IMG/VR virus record: IMGVR_UViG_2690316195_000003
DNA: 49,242 bases
Reading direction: 5' to 3' (one strand)
Origin: a virus
Taxonomy: Duplodnaviria; Heunggongvirae; Uroviricota; Caudoviricetes
A model generated the notes under the pieces. That model saw only the letters and a program-made list of their open reading frames with translations, made no database searches and had not been told where the DNA came from. Numbering within the stretch: position 1 is the first letter of the stretch; the number at the start of each line of letters is the position of its first letter. Shown here piece after piece: positions 28,461-36,891 of the stretch. The position numbers and the translations under genes are program-made.

Positions 28461-28595
28461 CGTCTCCTGATATCGAAGCCCGCCGCCGCACCGGGCGCTG
28501 ATCAACATTTGAGTATTCGCAGCGAAAGAAAGAATTTATTTTATTGAGTAGCCACAAACACAGAATTTCGTGCTTTCCAGACGATGGCGCATCCT

Positions 28596-28814
28596 TCATT
28601 TTTCAGCAAAATATTCTGCTCTTACAGGCGATAAGTTCTGCAGACACTGCCGAACACCGTCAACAATTTCGCAGACCTGAGAAGCCGTATCGAAAAGCTG
28701 GCGCGCCTTATCCAGGCTAACGCATCCCACCAGGAAAAAAGGCACCAGTATCGCTACCAGTGCCCATTTCGCCGCCGTTCGCGGCATTCTGTGTGTCCAG
28801 TGTTTTCTGCTCAT
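28596..28814 (-). CDS. putative lysis-associated lipoprotein (o-spanin-like)
   Basis: Internal start gives MSRKHWTHRMPRTAAKWALVAILVPFFLVGC: signal peptide with an LVGC lipobox; located just after the endolysin gene. Confidence 0.3.
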   Translation of the reverse strand: MSRKHWTHRMPRTAAKWALVAILVPFFLVGCVSLDKARQLFDTASQVCEIVDGVRQCLQNLSPVRAEYFAEK

Positions 28815-28828
28815 AACACACCTGGTTA

Positions 28829-29212
28829 TCAGCGTTTCAACTGAAAGTGAGGCCCGTCTTTCAGTGTTTTCCAGTCCCCGCCCCATTCGATGGCAGTTCC
28901 CAGCTCTGCGGCAGCCTTCTTAAATGCCTGCGCGATTTTCTCGTACAGAGGCCAGTCCCATGACACCTGGCTGCCAACCCAGGCAACAACATCCACCGCA
29001 TCACCGGTCAGGTGGCGGCTGTTCATGGTCTGGCTTTTCCCTTCCGCGACCAGCTGTTTCTGGCGTTCTTTCGTGCGCAGCCCTTCCGTAATACCGAAAT
29101 CAACCTCCGTCAGCTCCAGCGCACGGCGAACGACAGCAACCAGCTGTGGTTTAACGCCCTCCAGATTTTTTTCACTGCGACGGCTGAATCTGAATTTACC
29201 CGACATATTCAC
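28829..29212 (-). CDS. endolysin, peptidase M15-type (L-alanyl-D-glutamate peptidase-like)
   Basis: SRHLTGDAVD and GPHF metal-ligand motifs typical of M15 cell-wall peptidases; 127 aa; follows holin genes. Confidence 0.7.
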   Translation of the reverse strand: MNMSGKFRFSRRSEKNLEGVKPQLVAVVRRALELTEVDFGITEGLRTKERQKQLVAEGKSQTMNSRHLTGDAVDVVAWVGSQVSWDWPLYEKIAQAFKKAAAELGTAIEWGGDWKTLKDGPHFQLKR

Positions 29213-29484
29213 CTCAACAATGGAAAGATTTTTGTGACGTTCCCGCGTGCGCGTATCACCAGCACGCAGAACAGCAGGTTAAAAAACACTTCCAGCCAGC
29301 CCGTTGCTAACGGGCGACCACACAGATAGCTGAGGGGCGCAAAGGCATACAGCAGCATCAGCAGCCACGCCAGCCATGACATCAGCGGTTTATGTCTGGA
29401 ATCACGGCGACGATAAAAAAAGAGCGTCAGCACGATAACCGTGCATAACGCTACATTCAGCAATCCGGGAAGGTTACTTAACAT
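29209..29484 (-). CDS. holin-like / lysis membrane protein
   Basis: 92-aa protein with hydrophobic helices; strong ribosome-binding site ggaggagg before the ATG; 4-bp overlap with the endolysin start. Confidence 0.5.
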   Translation of the reverse strand: MLSNLPGLLNVALCTVIVLTLFFYRRRDSRHKPLMSWLAWLLMLLYAFAPLSYLCGRPLATGWLEVFFNLLFCVLVIRARGNVTKIFPLLR

Positions 29485-29866
29485 TGCCGCCTCCTCCACC
29501 CCGCAGACGGGAGAACAGGCCGGACACCAGTGATGCAATATCCTGCTGGTGGATGAACGAGAGAATCTTCACCGACACCACTGACACCAGCACTGCACAC
29601 AGTGCGTCGACAGGCGCACCGTCAAACCCTGTATGCTTTACCAGCCAGGATGCCAGAACCTCTGCGCCCAGCACGCCGATAATGAACGACACCAGAAAAT
29701 GCGCCGCCACACGCCAGGCTGAAAGCGCCTGCGGCATCGTTGCCACAAATAACGCCCCGGCGAACGCACCAAACACAATCCCGAAATCCGTTCCGGTAAA
29801 CAGCCCGAATACCGTCGCCCCGCCGAGCGCCACAGCCGTACCGGAACCGGATAAGGGTTCAGACAT
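29474..29866 (-). CDS. holin
   Basis: 130-aa protein with Gly/Ala-rich hydrophobic segments; ribosome-binding site gggagg before the ATG; first gene of the lysis cassette. Confidence 0.5.
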   Translation of the reverse strand: MSEPLSGSGTAVALGGATVFGLFTGTDFGIVFGAFAGALFVATMPQALSAWRVAAHFLVSFIIGVLGAEVLASWLVKHTGFDGAPVDALCAVLVSVVSVKILSFIHQQDIASLVSGLFSRLRGGGGGNVK

Positions 29867-30041
29867 GCTTTTTCCTCCCACAAATAAAAAAGGGCCTCCA
29901 GCGGCCCGTAAAAACACCCTGTCAAAGGCACCCGCAGATGCCTTTTGTGTGGTGTTATCTGATGTGATGTGCGCCGGGCGCGGCGCGGATATGAAAAAGG
30001 CCCGCCGCAGCGAGCCTGTTTTCAATGAGTGCAAAATTCAA

Positions 30042-30785
30042 TTATTCTTGAGTAACACTTAAACTCATCTCATTGAATGCAGCCATCCTGTAACCTGCCG
30101 GTGTAACACCAAAATAACTCCTGAATACGCTGATAAAATAAGATGTAAAATTATAGCCGCACTGAGCAGCGATTCTGTTGATGGCGCAACGAGATTGATT
30201 CAACAGCATTGCTGCCATTCTCATTCTCTCTGTAAGCAACAACTCACTGAAACAGGTGCCTTCTTCTTTCAGTCTTTTTTTTAACAAACTTTCACTGATA
30301 CATAACCGCGAAGACACATCTCTCAGAGTCCAGTTTGCTGCAATGTCCGTACGAAACAATGCACTAAGCCTGTCACTAATATTGCTAATACACGCGGTCA
30401 GAAACGACGAAAACATCTTCTCTGATGAGAAAAACGCCAGACACGAAAAGGAAAGCATTTCCGCTAAATTGTCCGTATGAATCTTTTCCTCACAAAGATA
30501 ATCAATCAGGATGCCCATCAATTCTGCCTTCGGAAAACTCACGCAAAGATATCGTGGTATTTGCCGGACTAAAACTACATCCTGTTTTTCGTCTCCACAC
30601 AACAGGTAACGGCTAATTGTCGATTCACTGAGACTTATTCGCCGAAAACATTCCGAAAAGGGCAATAACGATCCAGCTCCCCCCCTGACAAGAAGTGCAC
30701 TACCACTTTCAAGAGAGAGCTCTTTTCCTTCAAAGAGCACAACAAACGGGGAATGAACAAAAACAACAGAACAGGCTTCATTCAT
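30042..30785 (-). CDS. AraC-family transcriptional regulator (prophage moron)
   Basis: C-terminal AraC-type helix-turn-helix region (WTLRDVSSRLCISESLLKKRLKEEG...INRIAAQCGYNFTSYFISVFRSYFGVTPAGYR); start placed at MNEACSVVF; sits between the Q-dependent terminator and the holin. Confidence 0.8.
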   Translation of the reverse strand: MNEACSVVFVHSPFVVLFEGKELSLESGSALLVRGGAGSLLPFSECFRRISLSESTISRYLLCGDEKQDVVLVRQIPRYLCVSFPKAELMGILIDYLCEEKIHTDNLAEMLSFSCLAFFSSEKMFSSFLTACISNISDRLSALFRTDIAANWTLRDVSSRLCISESLLKKRLKEEGTCFSELLLTERMRMAAMLLNQSRCAINRIAAQCGYNFTSYFISVFRSYFGVTPAGYRMAAFNEMSLSVTQE

Positions 30786-30905
30786 ATCAATTGCCCTGAC
30801 ATTACTGGTCACAAGATAAGTATATATCGATTTACAAAAATACAAGCCGAAAGACCAGTATTCGCAACCACCAGCACGTTTTATGTTCTCTGCCGTTTTT
30901 CGGAC

Positions 30906-30931
30906 ATAAAAAACCCGCTCAATGGCGGGTT
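30906..30931 (-). terminator. tR-prime-like intrinsic terminator downstream of Q
   Basis: Minus-strand hairpin aacccgcc-attga-gcgggtt followed by a T-run; located between the Q-like gene stop and the late genes. Confidence 0.45.
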
Positions 30932-31014
30932 GTATCAAAGTTCATGCGCTTGGTTCACCTCGCGATACAGCTTTGCGAAGCTTAGCAAAATTGAAGCGGT
31001 TTATGCGTAAAAAA

Positions 31015-31557
31015 TCAAGCCGTTTTTTGAGCGAATGATTCTCGCATAGGAATGTATAGCGCATACTCAGCAACGGCCAACCAATTAGCAATTCGCTTTT
31101 CGCATGTGCTAAAACACCACTCTGGGTGTGCATCATTTAGCAATTCAGCCATTTTGCGTTTGGTCATCCCCCGCCCCTCATACCGTTGACGAAGGACGCT
31201 AATCAATCCTGGATGCTCTGCCAGCACCTCACTTATGACCCGATCAATACATAACGCCTCTGCATCAGTACAATGCGCCAGCCAGCTCTTTTGCTTACCG
31301 TTAATCATATCCCGCAAAAAAGCCTCAAGTTCAGACTTGTTCAGACCTGCTTTTTTCATCCTCCGGAGCGCCTCGTTAATTGCCGTTTTTGTCAGCTTTT
31401 TAGAGGCCAACAACTGGTTGAACATATTCCCCGTCTTACCGCCGCCAATATACGACCAGCGCCCCCACATGCGCAGTTTTCCCTGAATCCAGACACTTTC
31501 CAGCGTGGTGAGACGAAGGTGTTCCCCGCTTTTGCCTGTATTTGTTGGGTAAATCAT
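31015..31557 (-). CDS. late-gene antitermination protein Q-like
   Basis: Position after YbcN/YbcO-like genes and before a terminator and the lysis genes; ribosome-binding site ggagaaagg before the internal ATG (MIYPTNTGKS); family call by position rather than motif. Confidence 0.5.
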   Translation of the reverse strand: MIYPTNTGKSGEHLRLTTLESVWIQGKLRMWGRWSYIGGGKTGNMFNQLLASKKLTKTAINEALRRMKKAGLNKSELEAFLRDMINGKQKSWLAHCTDAEALCIDRVISEVLAEHPGLISVLRQRYEGRGMTKRKMAELLNDAHPEWCFSTCEKRIANWLAVAEYALYIPMRESFAQKTA

Positions 31558-31844
31558 AAATAACCTTCCTTTCTCCAGATTTCTTGCGTGCGAAAAACAC
31601 CTTCTGCATGCATCAGGCGTAATTCTTCTTTGGTGTAATCGCTTGTTTTTACCCGCCCGTCGATTAAATCGTGGCACGAGCTACAGGCAATCGCTGCCTG
31701 CATATCGTGTGGCTTTATCGCCGTTCCGCACGTTCCCGCCAACCTGTAATGCGCCAGCACAGAAGTTTCGGGATTGTGATTGCAGTAGCCAGGGATTCTG
31801 ACCTGGCACATCTGGCCCCGCGCCGCTTTACGTAAATCCACCAT
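31554..31844 (-). CDS. YbcO-like (DUF1364) protein
   Basis: N-terminus MVDLRKAARGQMCQVRIPGYCNHNPETSVLAHYR resembles the DLP12 YbcO family. Confidence 0.55.
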   Translation of the reverse strand: MVDLRKAARGQMCQVRIPGYCNHNPETSVLAHYRLAGTCGTAIKPHDMQAAIACSSCHDLIDGRVKTSDYTKEELRLMHAEGVFRTQEIWRKEGYL

Positions 31845-32443
31845 TACGCAAACTCCAGTAGCTGCGCGGCCACATTTTCGACTTGTTCCGGAGAGGAAAA
31901 TTTACGGAACAGAATCCAGTTCCACAGCACATTCAGTACAGATTTATAAACCTGCTGAAACTCGGTTTCGTCCATATTCGCAAACGCGATGGATTTCGCC
32001 CGACGCCCACGACTACCGTCCGGATAAATATGCTCGGTGTAAAATCCGGCCTGAATGGTTACCCACTCGCGGAAAGCCTCAAACGACTTTAGCAATGCCG
32101 TATCACGGGTTCTGTGTGTCGCAACTGTATTCAGATATTGCTCTGCGGCTTCGCTCAGAGCTGGCGTATGTTCCCGGCCTACTGATTCACACAGGTAATC
32201 AACGAAACCGGACACCAGTTTTCGTTCGCGAGGCGTGATCGCCCCACCGACCGGAGTCCAGTAATCGAAACCCAGTTGCAGGAGTTTGAAAAAACGCTTG
32301 TGGAATGCGTAGTTACGCACACGCTTAAAGTCTGCGTGTATCCACTCACCTATTTTGATTTGATGCAGAAAATCGCAACTCTCCGGCGTCGCCGGGAGAA
32401 GTAAACCAGAAGAAGTTTGTTTGACCAGTTGTATATGCGCCAT
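31844..32443 (-). CDS. YbcN-like (DUF1367) protein
   Basis: 199-aa ORF in the nin-region position upstream of the YbcO-like gene. Confidence 0.5.
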   Translation of the reverse strand: MAHIQLVKQTSSGLLLPATPESCDFLHQIKIGEWIHADFKRVRNYAFHKRFFKLLQLGFDYWTPVGGAITPRERKLVSGFVDYLCESVGREHTPALSEAAEQYLNTVATHRTRDTALLKSFEAFREWVTIQAGFYTEHIYPDGSRGRRAKSIAFANMDETEFQQVYKSVLNVLWNWILFRKFSSPEQVENVAAQLLEFA

Positions 32444-32716
32444 TTCTCAATCTCTCGATGGCGCAGTGCAGCAGATGCCAGTTGTTCAGGCTGACGAATG
32501 AAGTATAAATAAACTGGCTCCAGTGTAAAGCCCCCACATTGATGGAATAAAAACCAAACAACAGATTGCTGGGATAAAAACAACGCTTATTATTAAAAGC
32601 GGTTAGACAAATTAAATTTTAATGTTATGCAAATCTGCCAGATTAGCATAATATTTCATTTGAAAACCGCTGAAATAACAATCTTATCGGGATTAATCAT
32701 ATTAAGGTGAGTAAAT

Positions 32717-32820: not shown

Positions 32821-32846
32821 ATCAAACCCGCTACAGCGGGTTTGAT
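32821..32846. terminator. bidirectional terminator hairpin
   Basis: atcaaacccgc-taca-gcgggtttgat: perfect 11-bp stem; 12 nt downstream of the S8 protease stop (minus strand) and downstream of the small plus-strand ORF. Confidence 0.6.
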
Positions 32847-32857
32847 TTATATAGTTG

Positions 32858-35122
32858 TTATACGGAAACTGGCACACGAGCAGGCAATGGATAGTGAGCC
32901 CAGTTATTAGCACTTAAAGCTCTTACGCCATCAGCATAAACTTGTGTGTTTCCATCTAATGATTTTAAAGTTACTACAATAGTTACAGGTAAAGGCTCCA
33001 TTAAGGCCGGTTCATTCGCTCTCAACGTTGTTTTAGCTTGAAGAGCCCAGTTACCCGAAGTAATTCCTTTATTAAATGCCTTGCGATGAATTTTTACTGG
33101 TGACCACTTTCCACCATGCTCAATTTGAGCTCTCTCATATCCAGATTGACCGTTTTCTCCTTCCATAGGTACTTTTCCTTTTATAGTATTATTCTCAATT
33201 AAGCCAAAACTTAGCTCTACGTTCGCGCGAACATATTCACTGCCGGCATTAGGGTTCAGTGGTGGTGCATATGCAGCAGTAATTACAATCTCACCTTTAA
33301 ATTTTCCATTTTGAATAAGTGCCGATGGTATGGGATAGTTTTCCTTTCTCCACCTCACCCCAGGAACCAAGAATGTTTGGAAAATCAGAGTAAACCTATC
33401 ATCACTATCATATAAGGTCTCAATAACCTCATTAGGAATTCCCGCTCCCAAATAGCGTCTTTCACTTGGCGAGTAATCAGGAGAAGATAATTGAGCGGAA
33501 TGAATTAATAATGCTTTAATCAATGATGGTGAAACATTAAAGTCTGAATTAGTGGCTATTCTCTGCCATGTATGCGCAGCTAAACTTGCCACAATTGGAG
33601 CAGCAAAACTAGTACCAAAATTAGAGCAAAGCCTATTATCTGGCCCTACGACCTTTAAACTGCTTGCTCCTACATTCCAAGGTCTATGAACCCCACCGCC
33701 AGCATGGATTATATCTGGCTTTGGAGTAAATACAGGCCCAGGGCCACGACGAGTATATGGTGTCGGTGTTCCAATTTCACTTAAAGCATCATTAGCTTCC
33801 ATATGAGAAACTGAACCAACTGTTAGTGCTCGGACTGACTCTCCAGGAGAGGAAATTAAATCAGCACCTCCAAGCGGATCAGGATTTGGCCATGTACGTA
33901 TAGGTTCATCTACATAATTACCTGCAGCAACTACAAACAAAATACCAAATTTATCGCTGAGCCGATCTAACTCCATCGCAAAATCACTAAACATCTGCTC
34001 ATTACATGGTCCGCCTCCCAAAGACAAATTCCAGACTTTTATATCTGGTCTTTTATTTACAGCATCTGCTAGCCTCAGAATTAAATCTGATATATAAGAT
34101 CCATTTTCATCTAAAGCACAAACATCATGGATTTTAGATTTTGTATCAGGAATCCATGGATGATTGTCATTTAAAAAATGAGCGCCTGATATCAATGAAG
34201 ACACCATAGTCCCATGTTCATAACTCGTATCAGGAGGAATTACGTATGTTTCCCTACTCACTACCCAAGGAGTAATTGTTGCCGCGATGGGGCTTACCCC
34301 AGTGTCAAATACAGCAACAATGGGTAATTCTTCTGATGGTACGGGAAAGCTATTTGTTTCAATGCCAACAGAATCACTTACACTAACCGGGAATGCTGAA
34401 TATTTTGGTTCTGGAATTAACGTTCTTATACCCGGGTAATCAATGAGAATGTCTAATATATATCTATCATTTGGGGATAAATCCATTATCCTTAATAAGG
34501 GAAGACCACATTTTTGTCTAATCTCATCATATTTAACTCCGTGTTGTTCTAATATAGAAATAACGTTTTCATAGTTGTTGTAAGTTGCATCTTCACCTGT
34601 GTACTCAAATAGTCGTACAAGGATGTTTGATGATTCAAACAAACCATCAGTGCCTCCTGGAACCTTCCTATTCTCATCCCAAGGTTCAATGCGCTCAATC
34701 GCGCTTAGATTAGCCAAAATCGCTTTAATATTCCGATGTAAAATGACTGACTCTAATACGTCAAAACAGCCGGCATGAGCAGCAACCAACATTTCATCTA
34801 TTTTGGCATGACCGGCATTTTGCAATCCAGCCTCTTGAGCAATTTTGTTCGGCCTATGCGTTTTGGCTATTCCCTGGTCTCTTAATTTGAAAACCAAAGT
34901 ACCCAAGCTTCCAGGGTACTCTGAAAGTTTGGATTCTAAATAATGTTTACTGGTTGTTAAATTTCTTACTAACCCTTGTCTATATTCGGCTGTTACATCA
35001 ACCAATACCTTTGCCCCACCGCCAGCGTTTACTATTGCACCCAAGTCACTACTGGAAAAAGGGATTCTTAACATTGGGTTTGTAACTTTTGCGTTACTAA
35101 ACTGTGTACCCCTTCTGCTCAT
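32858..35122 (-). CDS. S8 subtilisin-like serine protease, cytoplasmic (no signal peptide), with extra N- and C-terminal domains
   Basis: Catalytic triad motifs in canonical order: IVAVFDTGV (Asp273, codon 34304-34306), YEHGTMVSS (His303), GTSFAAP (Ser505), plus NLSLGGG and VVAAGN subtilase motifs; 754 aa; AT-rich. Confidence 0.85.
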   Translation of the reverse strand: MSRRGTQFSNAKVTNPMLRIPFSSSDLGAIVNAGGGAKVLVDVTAEYRQGLVRNLTTSKHYLESKLSEYPGSLGTLVFKLRDQGIAKTHRPNKIAQEAGLQNAGHAKIDEMLVAAHAGCFDVLESVILHRNIKAILANLSAIERIEPWDENRKVPGGTDGLFESSNILVRLFEYTGEDATYNNYENVISILEQHGVKYDEIRQKCGLPLLRIMDLSPNDRYILDILIDYPGIRTLIPEPKYSAFPVSVSDSVGIETNSFPVPSEELPIVAVFDTGVSPIAATITPWVVSRETYVIPPDTSYEHGTMVSSLISGAHFLNDNHPWIPDTKSKIHDVCALDENGSYISDLILRLADAVNKRPDIKVWNLSLGGGPCNEQMFSDFAMELDRLSDKFGILFVVAAGNYVDEPIRTWPNPDPLGGADLISSPGESVRALTVGSVSHMEANDALSEIGTPTPYTRRGPGPVFTPKPDIIHAGGGVHRPWNVGASSLKVVGPDNRLCSNFGTSFAAPIVASLAAHTWQRIATNSDFNVSPSLIKALLIHSAQLSSPDYSPSERRYLGAGIPNEVIETLYDSDDRFTLIFQTFLVPGVRWRKENYPIPSALIQNGKFKGEIVITAAYAPPLNPNAGSEYVRANVELSFGLIENNTIKGKVPMEGENGQSGYERAQIEHGGKWSPVKIHRKAFNKGITSGNWALQAKTTLRANEPALMEPLPVTIVVTLKSLDGNTQVYADGVRALSANNWAHYPLPARVPVSV

Positions 35123-36251
35123 ATGCTCCTGACTCCTTCAGAATGTTTGAAATTACTCTTGATGTAAGTTTGTACAAATTAGCAAGAACTCTGATAGAAA
35201 ATAATTTTTTATCTTTAGAACGTAACCAACGAATTTCATCTTCGTAAGTGCTTAAATTTACACCTTCCATAAGCGATTGAGCAAGATACAAACGCCTATA
35301 CAATTTATGGTGATTTATCACACTTGCACCTTCAATAACTGCATCCCTACGTGCATCCAAGCTCACCTGTTCAATTATTGCTCCGGATAATCCTTCCGAT
35401 TTTCTTGATAAATCACTTAAATCTAGATCGCTACATATCATATTCTTTAAACGATTTTTCCAAATTAACTCTCTCTGATGTATGTCAGGCAGAGGCATTG
35501 GAATTCTGAAGCTAAATCGCCTCCAGATTGCAGGATCCAGAAGTTGCTCATGGTTAGTTGAGGCAATAATTACCGTATCCTCTGATGCCGCATCCATATT
35601 CTGCAATAGTGAAATGACAACTCGCTGAAGCTCACCTATATCTCTCTCATTACCTCTTGCTCCAGCTAAAGCATCAAATTCGTCTAAAAAAAGCACTGAT
35701 GGCCTCTGCATTACATAATCGAAAACCTGTCTAAGATTTTTGCTGGTTTGTCCCAATAAACTACTAATCAAAGTATCGCAACGCACTGTAAGAAGTGGAA
35801 AATCTAAGCGGGTAGCGATGTACTTAGATAACATAGTCTTACCTGTTCCTGGCTTTCCATACACGAGCATACGACTCGGCAATGCTGCATCAGCTTTAAC
35901 AAACTCATCATAACGTTGAACATTAGTGATAAACTCTTCAACACGGGTACTGATTGCTGCAGGCAGAAAAATCTCTGAACTGTCTAATTTAGGATAACTG
36001 ACATCAACAGTGTTGAGTCGACTATCAATATCTACCGGTAATGAGCCCAGAGATATCCCACCTCCAGCCCTTTGAGCTCCTGCCAACGCCTGGGGAGCTC
36101 TAAGCAACCTTTCTCTTATCATTCTGGCTTGCTTGACCTCCCCTTTTTGTTCGAGCTTATCTGCCAGCAACCCAGCATAATTACTAGCCATCGAAGCATT
36201 TGCCTTTGTTGCACCTTCAATGATTTTTAACACTTCTGATAAATAATCCAT
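35097..36251 (-). CDS. classical AAA+ ATPase
   Basis: Walker A YGKPGTGKTML, Walker B VLFLDEFDAL, and sensor / second region of homology IIASTNHEQLLDPAIWRRFSF; 26-bp overlap with the downstream protease gene indicates an operon. Confidence 0.85.
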   Translation of the reverse strand: MDYLSEVLKIIEGATKANASMASNYAGLLADKLEQKGEVKQARMIRERLLRAPQALAGAQRAGGGISLGSLPVDIDSRLNTVDVSYPKLDSSEIFLPAAISTRVEEFITNVQRYDEFVKADAALPSRMLVYGKPGTGKTMLSKYIATRLDFPLLTVRCDTLISSLLGQTSKNLRQVFDYVMQRPSVLFLDEFDALAGARGNERDIGELQRVVISLLQNMDAASEDTVIIASTNHEQLLDPAIWRRFSFRIPMPLPDIHQRELIWKNRLKNMICSDLDLSDLSRKSEGLSGAIIEQVSLDARRDAVIEGASVINHHKLYRRLYLAQSLMEGVNLSTYEDEIRWLRSKDKKLFSIRVLANLYKLTSRVISNILKESGAYEQKGYTV

Positions 36252-36444
36252 TCAACACTCCCACAACAAAAAGCCACAGCAATCAAAAAATGAGCACGCA
36301 GAATCAAAATACTCTCTAATCGTAACGCATTTTGAGATTTTTGATACGTTTTTTTGTGATTATGTAACGCCAAATGGTCATTTTGTGTCAGAAAAATAAA
36401 TCTTAGTACCGAGAATATGTAGCTTCCATCCTTCATCGTTCTAT
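36252..36444 (-). promoter_or_regulatory. AT-rich putative promoter region for the AAA+/S8 operon
   Basis: About 190 bp AT-rich non-coding DNA immediately upstream of the ATPase start; no -35/-10 elements confidently assigned. Confidence 0.3.
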
Positions 36445-36891
36445 TCATCCCTGATCTCCAAGCCTCTCTCGAAAACCATTCTGATAAAACGCCAGCACAC
36501 GCTGCATAACTTCGCTCTTCCGGCACTCGCGACAGATTATGTTCTGACGCCTGTCGTAGCGGCGTATTTCTCCGTCTGGTAATGACCAGATAAGGTCCGG
36601 ATCAACCACAACCGGTTTCTTCATCTTTGCCCTTGAGAGCTTTTTACGGGCATTTTGCCAGTCCTTACGCGCCTGTTCAGACGGGAATAACCCGTAACCA
36701 GAGTTGTATACATCGCCGCTGGCAACCAGCTCTCTTGCGAGAACGCTCATCAGATATCTTGTCGCACCTGTCTTGACTTCCAGTTGCCGTAACGTCTCGC
36801 GCCCATTCTGGCGCACGAGTTCAACAACCTGCCCCTTAATTTTTTCCCGCTCTTCTTGTGTAAATACTTTTGCCATAAGCGCCTCCGGCAA
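36445..36891 (-). CDS. hypothetical phage early protein
   Basis: 148-aa ORF; basic C-terminal region with CxxC (CRECRK). Confidence 0.35.
   Translation of the reverse strand: MPEALMAKVFTQEEREKIKGQVVELVRQNGRETLRQLEVKTGATRYLMSVLARELVASGDVYNSGYGLFPSEQARKDWQNARKKLSRAKMKKPVVVDPDLIWSLPDGEIRRYDRRQNIICRECRKSEVMQRVLAFYQNGFRERLGDQG

Follow-up and report, generated by a model that had tools for sequence, protein, structure and literature searches.

An AraC-family regulator gene between the Q-like antiterminator and holin genes of a lambdoid Escherichia coli prophage as probable lysogenic-conversion cargo

The window analyzed here is the whole stretch of 49,242 nucleotides held in IMG/VR virus record IMGVR_UViG_2690316195_000003 (Caudoviricetes), in which an earlier sequence-only reading had placed a complete AraC-type regulator at 30042-30931. 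We found an intact AraC/XylS-family regulator gene encoding 247 aa on the minus strand, from 30785 to 30042. The earlier limit of 30931 marks the edge where an upstream stem-loop begins; the gene itself starts with the ATG at 30785. The longest mechanical open reading frame at this locus (30938-30042, 298 aa, beginning with TTG) was rejected as the gene because its start falls inside the hairpin and no homologue reaches there. Every homologue starts at the same methionine as the ATG at 30785, with an MxxxCSV motif, and RefSeq annotates the identical 744-bp CDS (WP_001405091.1). Two Pfam helix-turn-helix models matched above their curated cut-offs (HTH_18, E = 3e-13, 50.3 bits against a cut-off of 33.6; HTH_AraC, E = 5.5e-13, 49.1 bits against 26.6), both at residues 209-284 of the 298-aa frame. 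The gene is AT-rich, as had been proposed, with a GC content of 41-43% against 47-58% in its flanks.

The surrounding features lie on one strand in the order Q-like gene, promoter-like block, hairpin, AraC gene, strong terminator, third hairpin, holin genes and endolysin gene. The Q-like gene (31015-31557, minus strand, 180 aa) encodes a DUF1133-type protein (Pfam, E = 2e-107) with a weak match to Phage_antitermQ (26.7 bits, cut-off 26) and a match to PHROG 753, ‘anti-termination protein Q-like’ (E = 1e-79); the gene is annotated ‘antitermination protein Q’ in phage vB_EcoS-683R6. A comparison with PDB sequences yielded nothing beyond a non-significant match of the N-terminal part to Q21 (E = 0.27), so the assignment of the protein as a late antiterminator is based on Pfam, PHROG and position. 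The lysis cassette starts with two overlapping holin genes (29209-29866, minus strand), namely a Phage_holin_8 gene at 29866-29474 and a Phage_holin_3_7 gene at 29484-29209 (Pfam, E = 7.5e-22 and 1e-21; PHROG 198 and 217, ‘holin’), and continues with an M15 endolysin gene (29206-28829, minus strand). This order bears out the earlier placement of the regulator in the late operon, between a terminator that follows Q and the holin. The AraC gene is 3' of Q and 5' of the lysis genes, the position of a Q-antiterminated late gene, and since it has the orientation of the late operon, transcription by a Q-modified polymerase would necessarily extend through it.

Two sites are candidates for the late promoter. 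A conserved non-coding block (30957-31018, minus strand) contains a putative PR'-like promoter with a -35 element TTGATT (31018-31013), a 17-nt spacer and a -10 element TTCAAT (30995-30990), followed 3' by a TANGCT -10-like element and then GCTTCGCAAAGCTGTATCGCGAGG; its PWM score of 6.06 is at the 99.9th percentile of the window. Among loci with a DUF1133-type Q, conservation is stronger in this block than at the 3' end of the Q gene; strain A19 carries an inserted ORF 3' of Q, and there the block still adjoins the hairpin. The rival candidate is inside the Q gene (-35 at 31080-31075, -10 TACATT at 31056-31051) and has a PWM score of 9.1, but it shows no conservation in divergent Q alleles. 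We infer from this conservation that the block at 30957-31018 is the likelier of the two candidates for the late promoter.

The hairpin that follows this block (30906-30931, minus strand, -11.2 kcal/mol) resembles a tR' intrinsic terminator and forms the 5' boundary of what we refer to as the AraC cassette. It begins 84 nt past the stop codon of the Q-like gene and consists of a 7-bp stem and a 6-nt loop (AACCCGC-CATTGA-GCGGGTT) followed by T6. In more than 40 loci, irrespective of the type of Q, it occupies the same position, -147 to -124 relative to the AraC ATG. It also closes the DUF1133-Q module where the AraC gene is absent, namely in phage 683R6 and at least 1261 genomes. Sakai Sp5 and Sp4 have a hairpin of the same type 3' of Q, as does the Stx2k phage. 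In Sp5 the hairpin is inside the mapped 258-nt PR'-tR' interval (PMC7547250), so an upstream hairpin of this kind need not be the operative tR'.

The leader between this hairpin and the ATG contains a Chi site (GCTGGTGG, 30868-30875, minus strand) that is invariant, with variable flanks, in six aligned cassettes. The window as a whole holds seven Chi sites where 1.2 would be expected, six of them on the AraC-gene strand. Nearer the gene, PWM scoring and conservation identified a promoter-like site (30819-30845, minus strand; -35 TTGTAT, 15-nt spacer, -10 TATACT) that ends 34 nt 5' of the ATG and scores 7.28, at the 99.96th percentile. The -10 element and the surrounding GATATATACTTATCTTG are invariant in alleles that are 88-91% identical overall. 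A strict sigma-70 consensus scan of 28500-32500 found no promoter, and this site, the best candidate in the cassette, has a short spacer and a weak -35; conserved but imperfect, it suggests that the AraC gene may have a promoter of its own. The leader as a whole does not exceed the coding sequence in conservation (85% versus 91% identity to a divergent allele), and its invariant part is only the ~30-nt core around the -10.

Located 25 nt past the AraC stop codon, a strong intrinsic terminator (29993-30017, minus strand, -20 kcal/mol, z = -4.9) marks the cassette's 3' limit. Over 38 nt it shares 87% identity with the argO-stx2A hairpin of Sakai Sp5, and the segment 29991-30016 is duplicated on either side of tRNA inserts in strains C41 and ETEC1748. 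A third hairpin with a T-run (29886-29907, minus strand, -11.6 kcal/mol) lies just 5' of the holin gene and belongs to the holin module. An Rfam search of 29000-32000 returned sub-threshold chance matches only.

The C-terminal ~100 residues of the predicted protein carry two helix-turn-helix motifs, as in the AraC/XylS family. Whole-length homology, a size within the ~240-255 aa range and the MxxxCSV N-terminus place it in the YdeO/GadW/AppY/PatE/Psr subgroup, in which C5, W152 and the SESLLKK and SYF blocks are invariant, and it matches PHROG 1450 over residues 3-233 (E = 1e-56). Among NCBIfam models, YdeO matched best and did so along the entire protein (E = 5e-43), with 147.5 bits against an equivalog cut-off of 348; GadX matched in the C-terminal half only, with 97.8 bits against 500. 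Because these scores are far under the equivalog cut-offs, the protein is a paralogue of YdeO and GadX rather than an orthologue. The homology comparison supported the suggested likeness to prophage AraC-like regulators, since full-length homology links the protein to PsrA, the PatE-like protein ECs_0287 of Sakai and YdeO; identity to these and to GadW is 35-41%. Identity to ECs_0287 was 39% over 234 aa by local BLASTP and 37% in a MAFFT alignment; identity to YdeO was 35% in the MAFFT alignment and 37% in a separate pairwise comparison; and GadW, AppY and GadX were 35%, 29% and 27% identical in the MAFFT alignment. The DNA-reading helices (SESLLKKRLK and TSYFISVFR) have near-identical counterparts in PsrA, YdeO and the PatE-like protein. 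Over the N-terminal domain, identity to the same three proteins is just 28-31%, so the signals and partners of the regulator may differ from theirs.

An AF2 model (pLDDT 88) consists of an N-terminal beta-sandwich, a helical linker and the two helix-turn-helix motifs. The DNA-binding domain superimposes on that of GadX (3MKL) with a TM of 0.91, an rmsd of 0.9 Å and 42-44% identity, and the C-terminal domain also matches the DNA complexes of MarA and SoxS. PADLOC gave no match for the protein, which by this comparison is not a known defence component. A peptide-pattern scan of GTDB species-representative genomes found no relative, and in the data examined the close lineage looks confined to Escherichia.

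We compared the locus with six RefSeq E. coli loci and 47 IMG/VR loci and searched 5426 complete genomes, 65 of which carry the AraC gene; the Q-promoter-hairpin module is present in at least 1261. Breakpoints in other genomes fall at 29991-30016 and 30931-30934, which delimits a hairpin-to-hairpin cassette of approximately 29991-30934. Upstream of it are at least five types of Q, the alleles including two of the DUF1133 type, two of a 273-aa type and two of a 121-aa type; the IMG/VR locus L033 has no panel Q match and carries a Q82-like zinc-finger ORF upstream. At 45 of the 47 IMG/VR loci a co-oriented, panel-detected Q-type gene lies 5' of the AraC gene, and in most of them holins of the panel lie 3' of it. 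The IetS-DUF1367-YbcO-Q-hairpin module recurs in phage vB_EcoS-683R6 with tRNA-Thr/Gly in the AraC slot, and homology to phiP27 and an LT-IIb prophage starts at the holin and ends at 29958-30004. The gene is thus present or absent between conserved genes of related phages and, as in a moron, has its own terminator and a base composition unlike that of its neighbors. Judged from these comparisons, the cassette moves between prophages. Most of the carriers seen come from animals, the environment or porcine ETEC rather than from LEE-positive strains in particular.

We consider it probable that the AraC gene is a lysogenic-conversion (‘moron’) regulator in a slot for exchangeable cargo within the late operon of a lambdoid E. 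coli prophage at the Rac site. From the sequence comparisons, the regulator is an addition to a known type of cargo, as the slot elsewhere holds Shiga toxin and PsrA. PR' is constitutive and is halted at tR' in lysogens (PMC7547250). In a lysogen of the present prophage, constitutive transcription from the late promoter would likewise be halted at the upstream hairpin, the weak promoter ~35 nt 5' of the ATG would provide low-level AraC transcription, and the cassette's terminator would bar this transcript from the holin genes. Upon induction, Q-modified RNA polymerase would pass all three hairpins, and the regulator would be made in a burst along with the lysis proteins. By analogy with its family, the protein would bind AT-rich promoter DNA through the two helix-turn-helix motifs, and the close match of its reading helices to those of YdeO, PsrA and the PatE-like protein implies that it would act as an activator of host genes. 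Its targets would most likely be the gadE/hdeA circuit of acid resistance and further H-NS-silenced loci, as has been reported for PatE, PsrA/PsrB and AppY, a prediction drawn only from homologues of 35-41% identity.

Alternatively, the regulator may serve the phage itself, in lysis timing, control of neighboring cargo or superinfection, and be made only under Q antitermination with no role in the lysogen. This is unlikely in view of phage 683R6, which shares the early-right and Q module and has tRNAs instead of the AraC gene, and of more than 1200 genomes that have the Q module without the gene, from which it follows that the gene is dispensable for lytic growth. A phage-serving role would fit the location of the gene, which is in the late operon, co-oriented with and 3' of a panel-detected Q-type gene, at 45 of the 47 IMG/VR loci; however, it combines freely with two types of holin and five or more types of Q, which argues against a specific phage partner. 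Expression under Q only would agree with the negative strict-consensus scan and with an upstream terminator that would stop read-in during lysogeny, yet the gene's own terminator and conserved leader suit independent expression. A phage-serving role is also at odds with close relatives, which act on host genes from outside late operons, namely from the att end of a prophage for PatE-like genes and from the chromosome for YdeO and GadW.

The allele data bear on whether the gene could instead be a functionless passenger, that is, silenced neutral DNA in a recombination-prone slot. The earlier reading had named disruption of the gene as evidence that would count against it; the present copy is intact. 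Of 51 copies, 46 are intact with a length of 744 bp, and L053 keeps the frame with one extra codon, so that 47 are open. The remaining four are disrupted, which indicates that loss is tolerated; recorded disruptions were a nonsense codon (L049), a truncation (L061) and frameshifts in C41 (L002), C7 and L059, and probably also in C3, judged only from a split annotation matching that of C7. A G7 run at 30685-30679 occurs as G5, G7, G9 or G10 among the copies, but a phase-variation switch was not supported, because just one of these lengths shifts the frame; substitution accounts for G9, and G10 amounts to an additional codon. In both domains dN/dS is 0.25-0.30 between alleles whose dS reaches 0.25, and on this measure the gene is under purifying selection. 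We therefore find the passenger reading quite improbable, even though the disrupted copies, the presence of the gene in so few genomes and an AT-richness such as H-NS-silenced foreign DNA would have are in its favor: neutral DNA would not account for the selection, for the conserved start, length and reading helices, or for a cassette kept whole in many prophage backgrounds.

There is very little probability that the main lysogen product is an ~80-nt RNA reaching from the late promoter to the 30931-30906 hairpin, like StxS, with the AraC gene secondary: constitutive PR' transcription in Stx phages does yield a terminated by-product that is a functional Hfq-binding sRNA (PMC7547250), and conservation of the block from the Q stop codon to the hairpin exceeds that at the end of the Q gene, but no Rfam family exceeded its threshold, the 91-nt segment folds no better than shuffled sequence (z = -0.74), promoter and Q-loading signals explain the conservation equally well, and the conserved, selected AraC coding sequence would be left unexplained.

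A broader extension of the conversion reading would join a two-mode cassette, hairpin/Chi linkers and a third, unrecognised class of Psr/PatE-like host regulators, a combination that we regard as doubtful. In the two-mode part, a trickle of regulator in the lysogen would tune host stress and acid-resistance regulons, and the Q-dependent burst would rewire host transcription minutes before lysis. The edge hairpins and Chi site would act as recombination linkers through which regulators, tRNA blocks and toxins are swapped across prophages with unrelated Q genes. The new class would be a lineage spread mainly in livestock-associated and ETEC E. coli.

The prophage AraC regulators PatE, PsrA/B and AppY are known to act in host acid-resistance and virulence circuits. 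Full-text literature searches for the AraC accession and its PHROG retrieved no published study of the present lineage, which is unnamed in the literature and occurs in ~1% of complete E. coli genomes, many of them from cattle, pigs (ETEC) and the environment. By analogy with Shiga toxin, the gene is in a slot where its expression would be tied to induction. If the protein acts like its relatives, it would provide a further prophage route to altered acid survival or colonisation, and the dose of regulator would jump on prophage induction. The comparative data show that cargo in the Q-holin slot is exchanged as hairpin-bounded units.

Among known systems, PsrA (ECs1087, Sakai Sp4) is a member of the same subgroup that aligns end to end with the present protein (237 versus 247 aa, 36% identity) and occupies the same Q-to-lysis slot in Sp4, 3' of Q and co-oriented. 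Hairpins and a Chi-like GGCTGGTGG lie 5' of psrA, a GGCTCGC..GCGGGCC-T hairpin lies 3' of it, and the psrA -10 element (TATAAT) ends 36 nt before the ATG, a geometry resembling that of the present cassette. The two proteins differ in their N-terminal domains (28% identity), and the present one forms a separate branch of the subgroup tree. In Sp4, two other genes lie between Q and psrA and ileZ-argN-argO come after it, whereas the present gene is directly after the Q-proximal hairpin and directly before the holins. We located psrA as ECs1087 in Sp4 following PMC13502914, which gives PsrA this name and in which psrA responds to regulation in uninduced cultures; two reviews place it at z1789 (OI-50/CP-933N), but no AraC-type gene or tblastn match was found in Sakai Sp6 or EDL933 CP-933N. 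A PsrA-type gene (89% identical) is also found in phiSTEC1575-Stx2k, between Q and the tRNA-stx2k block. PsrA and PsrB raise GadE/YhiF expression, which leads to repression of type III secretion (PMC10877973, PMC8565820).

PatE (Z0321, CP-933H/Sakai Sp1), which we took to be ECs_0287 as the sole AraC-type gene annotated in Sp1, is likewise prophage-borne, has 247 aa and has nearly the same reading helices. PatE-like genes differ in location, being at the tail-fibre/invertase end near att, as in mEp332 and ev099, and not in the Q-holin slot. PatE is reported to activate gadE, gadBC and hdeAB and to lower LEE expression (PMC10877973), and PatE, PsrB and AppY activate acid-resistance genes (PMC10877973, PMC10057817). 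YdeO, GadW, GadX and AppY of E. coli K-12 belong to the same subgroup and all regulate gadE and the acid fitness island (PMC10057817). The first three are chromosomal, unlike the present gene; AppY is prophage-borne, in DLP12 (PMC10057817), but its gene is at the far end of DLP12 past the tail-fibre genes. Rns, CsvR and ToxT share the two-domain plan of the model and were its full-length Foldseek matches (244-257 columns, E = 4e-12 to 5e-8), and Rns and ToxT were also matched by sequence search from residue ~88 onward. Identity to these proteins is ~20%, and with a TM of 0.42 and an rmsd of 16 Å overall, the arrangement of the domains in the model differs from theirs.

Other late-operon cargo, such as stx, the LT-IIb genes and tRNA blocks, occupies the same interval from Q/PR'/tR' to the holin as the AraC cassette. 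In phiP27 (stx2e) and the LT-IIb prophage, homology on the holin side stops just short of the cassette, and in Sp5 the hairpin immediately upstream of stx2A is homologous to the cassette's downstream terminator. Like a moron, the cassette is terminator-bounded, deviates in GC and is present or absent in related phages. It differs from such cargo in encoding a transcription factor, not a toxin or tRNA.

Every gene between 28.8 and 32.4 kb of the window lies on the minus strand. In transcription order, DUF1367 (32443-31844) and YbcO/DUF1364 (31844-31554) precede a gene for a 180-aa Q-like protein (31557-31015; Pfam DUF1133, E 2e-107; PHROG 753 'anti-termination protein Q-like', E 1e-79; marginal Pfam match to Phage_antitermQ), followed by the AraC-type gene (30785-30042, 247 aa), two holin genes (29866-29474 and 29484-29209) and an M15 endolysin gene (29206-28829). 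In nearly all loci examined, this late-operon cargo slot holds, between two terminators, an intact AraC/XylS gene under selection that belongs to the YdeO/Psr/PatE subgroup. The sequence-only reading had placed the gene in the late operon after a tR'-like terminator and before the holins, and the anatomy (hairpin at 30931-30906, holins from 29866) agrees.

The prophage sits at the E. coli Rac site (ttcA/intR) and is collinear with that of strain A17 (99.7-99.8%) with one segment replaced: 32842-36481 stands in place of the hokD/KilA-N segment of the near-identical A17 prophage. PADLOC identified an IetAS anti-phage defence pair at 32858-36251 (minus), comprising the S8 peptidase IetS (32858-35122, minus; PDLC02197, E 1e-300) and the AAA ATPase IetA (35097-36251, minus; PDLC02196, E 9e-143). 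The same S8 peptidase gene lies ahead of DUF1367-YbcO-Q in phage vB_EcoS-683R6, which has the window's IetS-DUF1367-YbcO-Q-hairpin order, with tRNA-Thr and tRNA-Gly filling the slot. The RefSeq annotation of the A17 prophage includes an 'anti-CBASS protein Acb1 family protein' gene (1437 bp) after the large terminase subunit gene (record 2296190-2297626, corresponding to ~23.3-24.7 kb of the window) and, lying within the baseplate genes, a type I restriction endonuclease-like gene.

We typed the neighbours of the AraC gene with a protein panel in 47 IMG/VR loci encoding the protein. A panel-detected Q-type gene preceded it on the same strand in 45 of these; the other two are L053 and L033, and in L033 a Q82-like zinc-finger ORF lies upstream. 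The upstream Q genes are of at least five types (DUF1133 in two alleles, a 273-aa Q and a 121-aa Q in two versions each), and panel holins, in two sets, lay downstream in most loci. Occasional co-cargo included TerB, DUF3927, an IraM-like gene, an Ant-like ORF, or DUF6731 with a tRNA. The AraC gene forms a mobile cassette with a constant location, and homology breakpoints in other genomes coincided with its two hairpins. Homology begins at 30934 in strain CEA224S, which has another Q (273 aa), and ends at 29965 in strain 09-00049, which has other holins; phages phiP27 (stx2e) and SerU-LTIIb have the holin side alone in common with the window, up to 29958-30004. In strains C41 and ETEC1748, tRNA genes are inserted after the AraC gene, with the 26-nt terminator segment 29991-30016 on either side of the insert. 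That the protein is a phage-directed late regulator is unlikely, as the gene is dispensable and pairs promiscuously with Q and holin types; we favour a regulator directed at the host.

The upstream hairpin lies at -147 to -124 from the AraC ATG in more than 40 loci, irrespective of the sequence further upstream. Of 5426 complete E. coli genomes, at least 1261 carry the DUF1133-type Q gene together with the promoter block and this hairpin, with homology typically stopping at the T-run; the AraC gene is carried by only 65. Because the hairpin is fixed ahead of the AraC ATG and is also kept with DUF1133-type Q genes lacking AraC, it is the joint, part of the Q module and of the cassette alike. 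Hairpins of this type are also present after Q in the Stx2k phage (twice) and in prophages Sp5 and Sp4 of E. coli O157:H7 Sakai, and the downstream terminator shares 87% identity with the Sp5 hairpin between argO and stx2A, after ileZ-argN-argO. From these hairpin types in common with Sp5, the cassette takes the position of the tRNA block preceding stx in Stx phages. Both edge hairpins (29991-30017 and 30906-30931) recur as late-module joints in unrelated lambdoid prophages (loci L002, L013, L009, L070 and L071) and look like shared linkers for module exchange. Separately, several prophages carry an IraM-like anti-adaptor gene (RpoS stabiliser) on the opposite strand of the Q-to-holin slot, which it shares with this AraC gene or with the PsrA-like gene (L014 1632-1967; L009 6012-6335; IMG/VR loci L021-L024, L028 and L060); the window has none.

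The AraC gene had been described as complete and as spanning 30042-30931. The 30042 end stood, whereas 30931 is the first base of the upstream hairpin. Every homologue begins at ATG 30785 with MxxxCSV and the RefSeq CDS is identical in extent (744 bp; WP_001405091.1, 'helix-turn-helix domain-containing protein'), so the gene is 30785-30042, 247 aa; the homologues also rule out a TTG start at 30938 from a mechanical ORF call. Completeness was confirmed, and Pfam HTH_18 and HTH_AraC each exceed the curated cut-off. Of 51 copies compared, 46 are intact at 744 bp. One further copy (L053) has an extra glycine codon and stays in frame, and four are broken, by a nonsense codon (L049), frameshifts (C41/L002 and L059) or truncation (L061). 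Outside the 51, a frameshift likewise splits the C7 copy (L012), and C3 has a similarly split annotation (annotation alone). Among 19 distinct intact alleles, dN/dS was 0.25-0.30 (allele pairs with dS 0.06-0.25), alike in the N-terminal and DNA-binding halves. By this measure the gene is under purifying selection, of a strength usual for accessory regulators. Both the dN/dS and the intactness of most copies speak against a functionless passenger, which we regard as very unlikely.

The cassette has 41-43% GC against 47-58% in both flanks, as expected from the earlier description of the gene as somewhat AT-rich. A G7 run in this AT-rich gene (30679-30685, minus; codons 35-37) varies in length between copies: G5 is the frameshift of strain C41, G9 arose by substitution, G10 adds one glycine codon, and a divergent allele has G4AG4. 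Since only one variant breaks the frame, a phase-variation switch was not supported.

Three minus-strand stem-loops with T-runs mark the module junctions, in a region with 13 terminator-like sites in 4 kb (4.5 +/- 2.3 in shuffles). The upstream hairpin (30931-30906; -11.2 kcal/mol) lies 84 nt past the Q stop codon, the downstream terminator (30017-29993; -20 kcal/mol, z -4.9) 25 nt past the AraC stop codon, and the third (29907-29886; -11.6 kcal/mol) right before the first holin gene. A non-coding block separates the Q stop codon from the upstream hairpin and contains TTGATT, 17 nt, TTCAAT, then TANGCT and GCTTCGCAAAGCTGTATCGCGAGG. Among the DUF1133-type Q loci compared, this block is conserved above the 3' end of the Q gene, and in strain A19 an ORF is inserted after Q, yet the block still adjoins the hairpin. 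We infer that it may be the late promoter with a Q-loading and pause region; a higher-scoring promoter-like site within the Q gene (31080-31051) is an alternative candidate. In Stx phages the late promoter is constitutive, and its transcript stops at tR' in lysogens and reads through once Q is made (PMC7547250). Sakai Sp5 has a hairpin of the window's upstream type only ~45 nt past the Q gene, and the terminator mapped there by Term-seq is the second hairpin, 258 nt from PR' (PMC7547250; coordinates reconciled via a 142-nt stx2A offset between record versions). As the window has a single hairpin between Q and the AraC ATG, with a 3' flank (TTTTTTATGTCCG) matching that of the mapped Sp5 tR', 'tR'-like' seems a reasonable label for 30931-30906.

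If the post-Q block is a constitutive late promoter, a lysogen would make an ~80-nt RNA (30906-30990, minus) with its 3' end at the hairpin, equivalent in position to StxS, a small RNA of Stx phages (PMC7547250). This candidate has no Rfam match and its fold stability is not unusual; with no structural or family support, it is highly improbable that such a short PR'-hairpin RNA is the main lysogenic product of the locus.

The 127-nt AraC leader, from hairpin to ATG, contains a Chi site (GCTGGTGG; 30868-30875, minus) that is invariant across six cassettes while neighbouring bases vary; GGCTGGTGG likewise lies shortly upstream of psrA in Sakai Sp4. The window has seven Chi sites (1.2 expected), six on the late-transcription strand. 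The leader also holds a promoter-like TTGTAT-15-TATACT (30845-30819), whose -10 TATACT and surroundings are invariant among alleles otherwise 88-91% identical. A strict consensus promoter scan of the region around the gene found none, and expression from an own promoter therefore stays a prediction.

Among NCBIfam models, YdeO fitted the protein best and did so along its full length (E 5e-43), but the scores for YdeO (147.5 bits, cut-off 348) and GadX (97.8 bits, cut-off 500) fell below the cut-offs and we rejected both assignments. The sequence-only reading had suggested comparison with known prophage AraC-like regulators. Pairwise identities over a MAFFT alignment were 41% to P0012 (a paralogue directly after a Q82-type gene), 37% to Sakai Sp1 ECs_0287 (presumably PatE; 39% by BLASTP local alignment), 36% to PsrA (ECs1087), 35% to YdeO (37% by BLASTP local alignment) and GadW, 29% to AppY and 27% to GadX. 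A neighbour-joining tree set the protein on its own branch, beside prophage-borne PatE-like and PsrA-like branches. Its two predicted DNA-reading helices, SESLLKKRLK and TSYFISVFR, are within one or two residues of their counterparts in YdeO, PsrA and the PatE-like protein; N-terminal domain identity to the same three proteins is only 28-31%. In an AlphaFold2 model (64-sequence alignment, mean pLDDT 88), the C-terminal domain superposed on the GadX DNA-binding domain 3MKL (TM 0.91, rmsd 0.9 A), and Rns, CsvR and ToxT aligned over the whole chain (E 4e-12 to 5e-8), with the domains oriented differently (TM 0.42). PHROGs places the protein in family 1450, 'unknown function'; the protein collection searched gave generic names at most in every source, and its accessions had no match in a full-text literature search. 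A 37-39% identical paralogue, P0014, is encoded on an island without phage context (L066 6001-6729), ~1 kb from a gene for an HdeA-family protein, which hints at a link between the regulator subgroup and acid-chaperone genes.

From this anatomy and lambdoid biology, the late-promoter transcript of a lysogen would stop at the upstream hairpin, the AraC gene would be read weakly from its own predicted promoter, and its strong terminator would keep transcription from running on lethally into the holins. Once the prophage is induced, polymerase modified by Q would pass all three hairpins, giving a high level of the regulator together with the lysis proteins. Judging by its family, the protein would activate host promoters that are AT-rich and probably silenced by H-NS, the gadE/hdeA circuit being the first candidate. 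We consider this overall picture probable and hold gadE and hdeA as specific targets with considerably less confidence. As far as sequence can show, the earlier interpretation is supported.

Reviews (PMC10877973, PMC8565820, PMC10057817) credit PatE and PsrB with activation of gadE, hdeA and acid resistance, PsrA and PsrB with repression of type III secretion via GadE/YhiF, and AppY with direct activation of gadE. Two reviews placed psrA at z1789 in OI-50 (CP-933N). The Sakai annotation and a 2026 paper (PMC13502914) agree on ecs1087 in prophage Sp4, at odds with those two reviews, and we found no AraC-type gene in Sakai Sp6 or the EDL933 CP-933N region examined (loci L005, L015 and L070). ECs1087 is a 237-aa ORF downstream of the Q gene ECs_1084 and co-oriented with it, beyond two small genes and two hairpins, and ileZ-argN-argO comes next. 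An 89%-identical PsrA-like gene lies between Q and the tRNA-stx2k block of phage phiSTEC1575-Stx2k, and the Lambda_ev245 phage group has a further paralogue between Q and S. PatE-like genes differ, lying at the tail-fibre/att end, unlike the late slot of the window. The AraC gene is thus an uncharacterised lineage of an already known type of prophage cargo.
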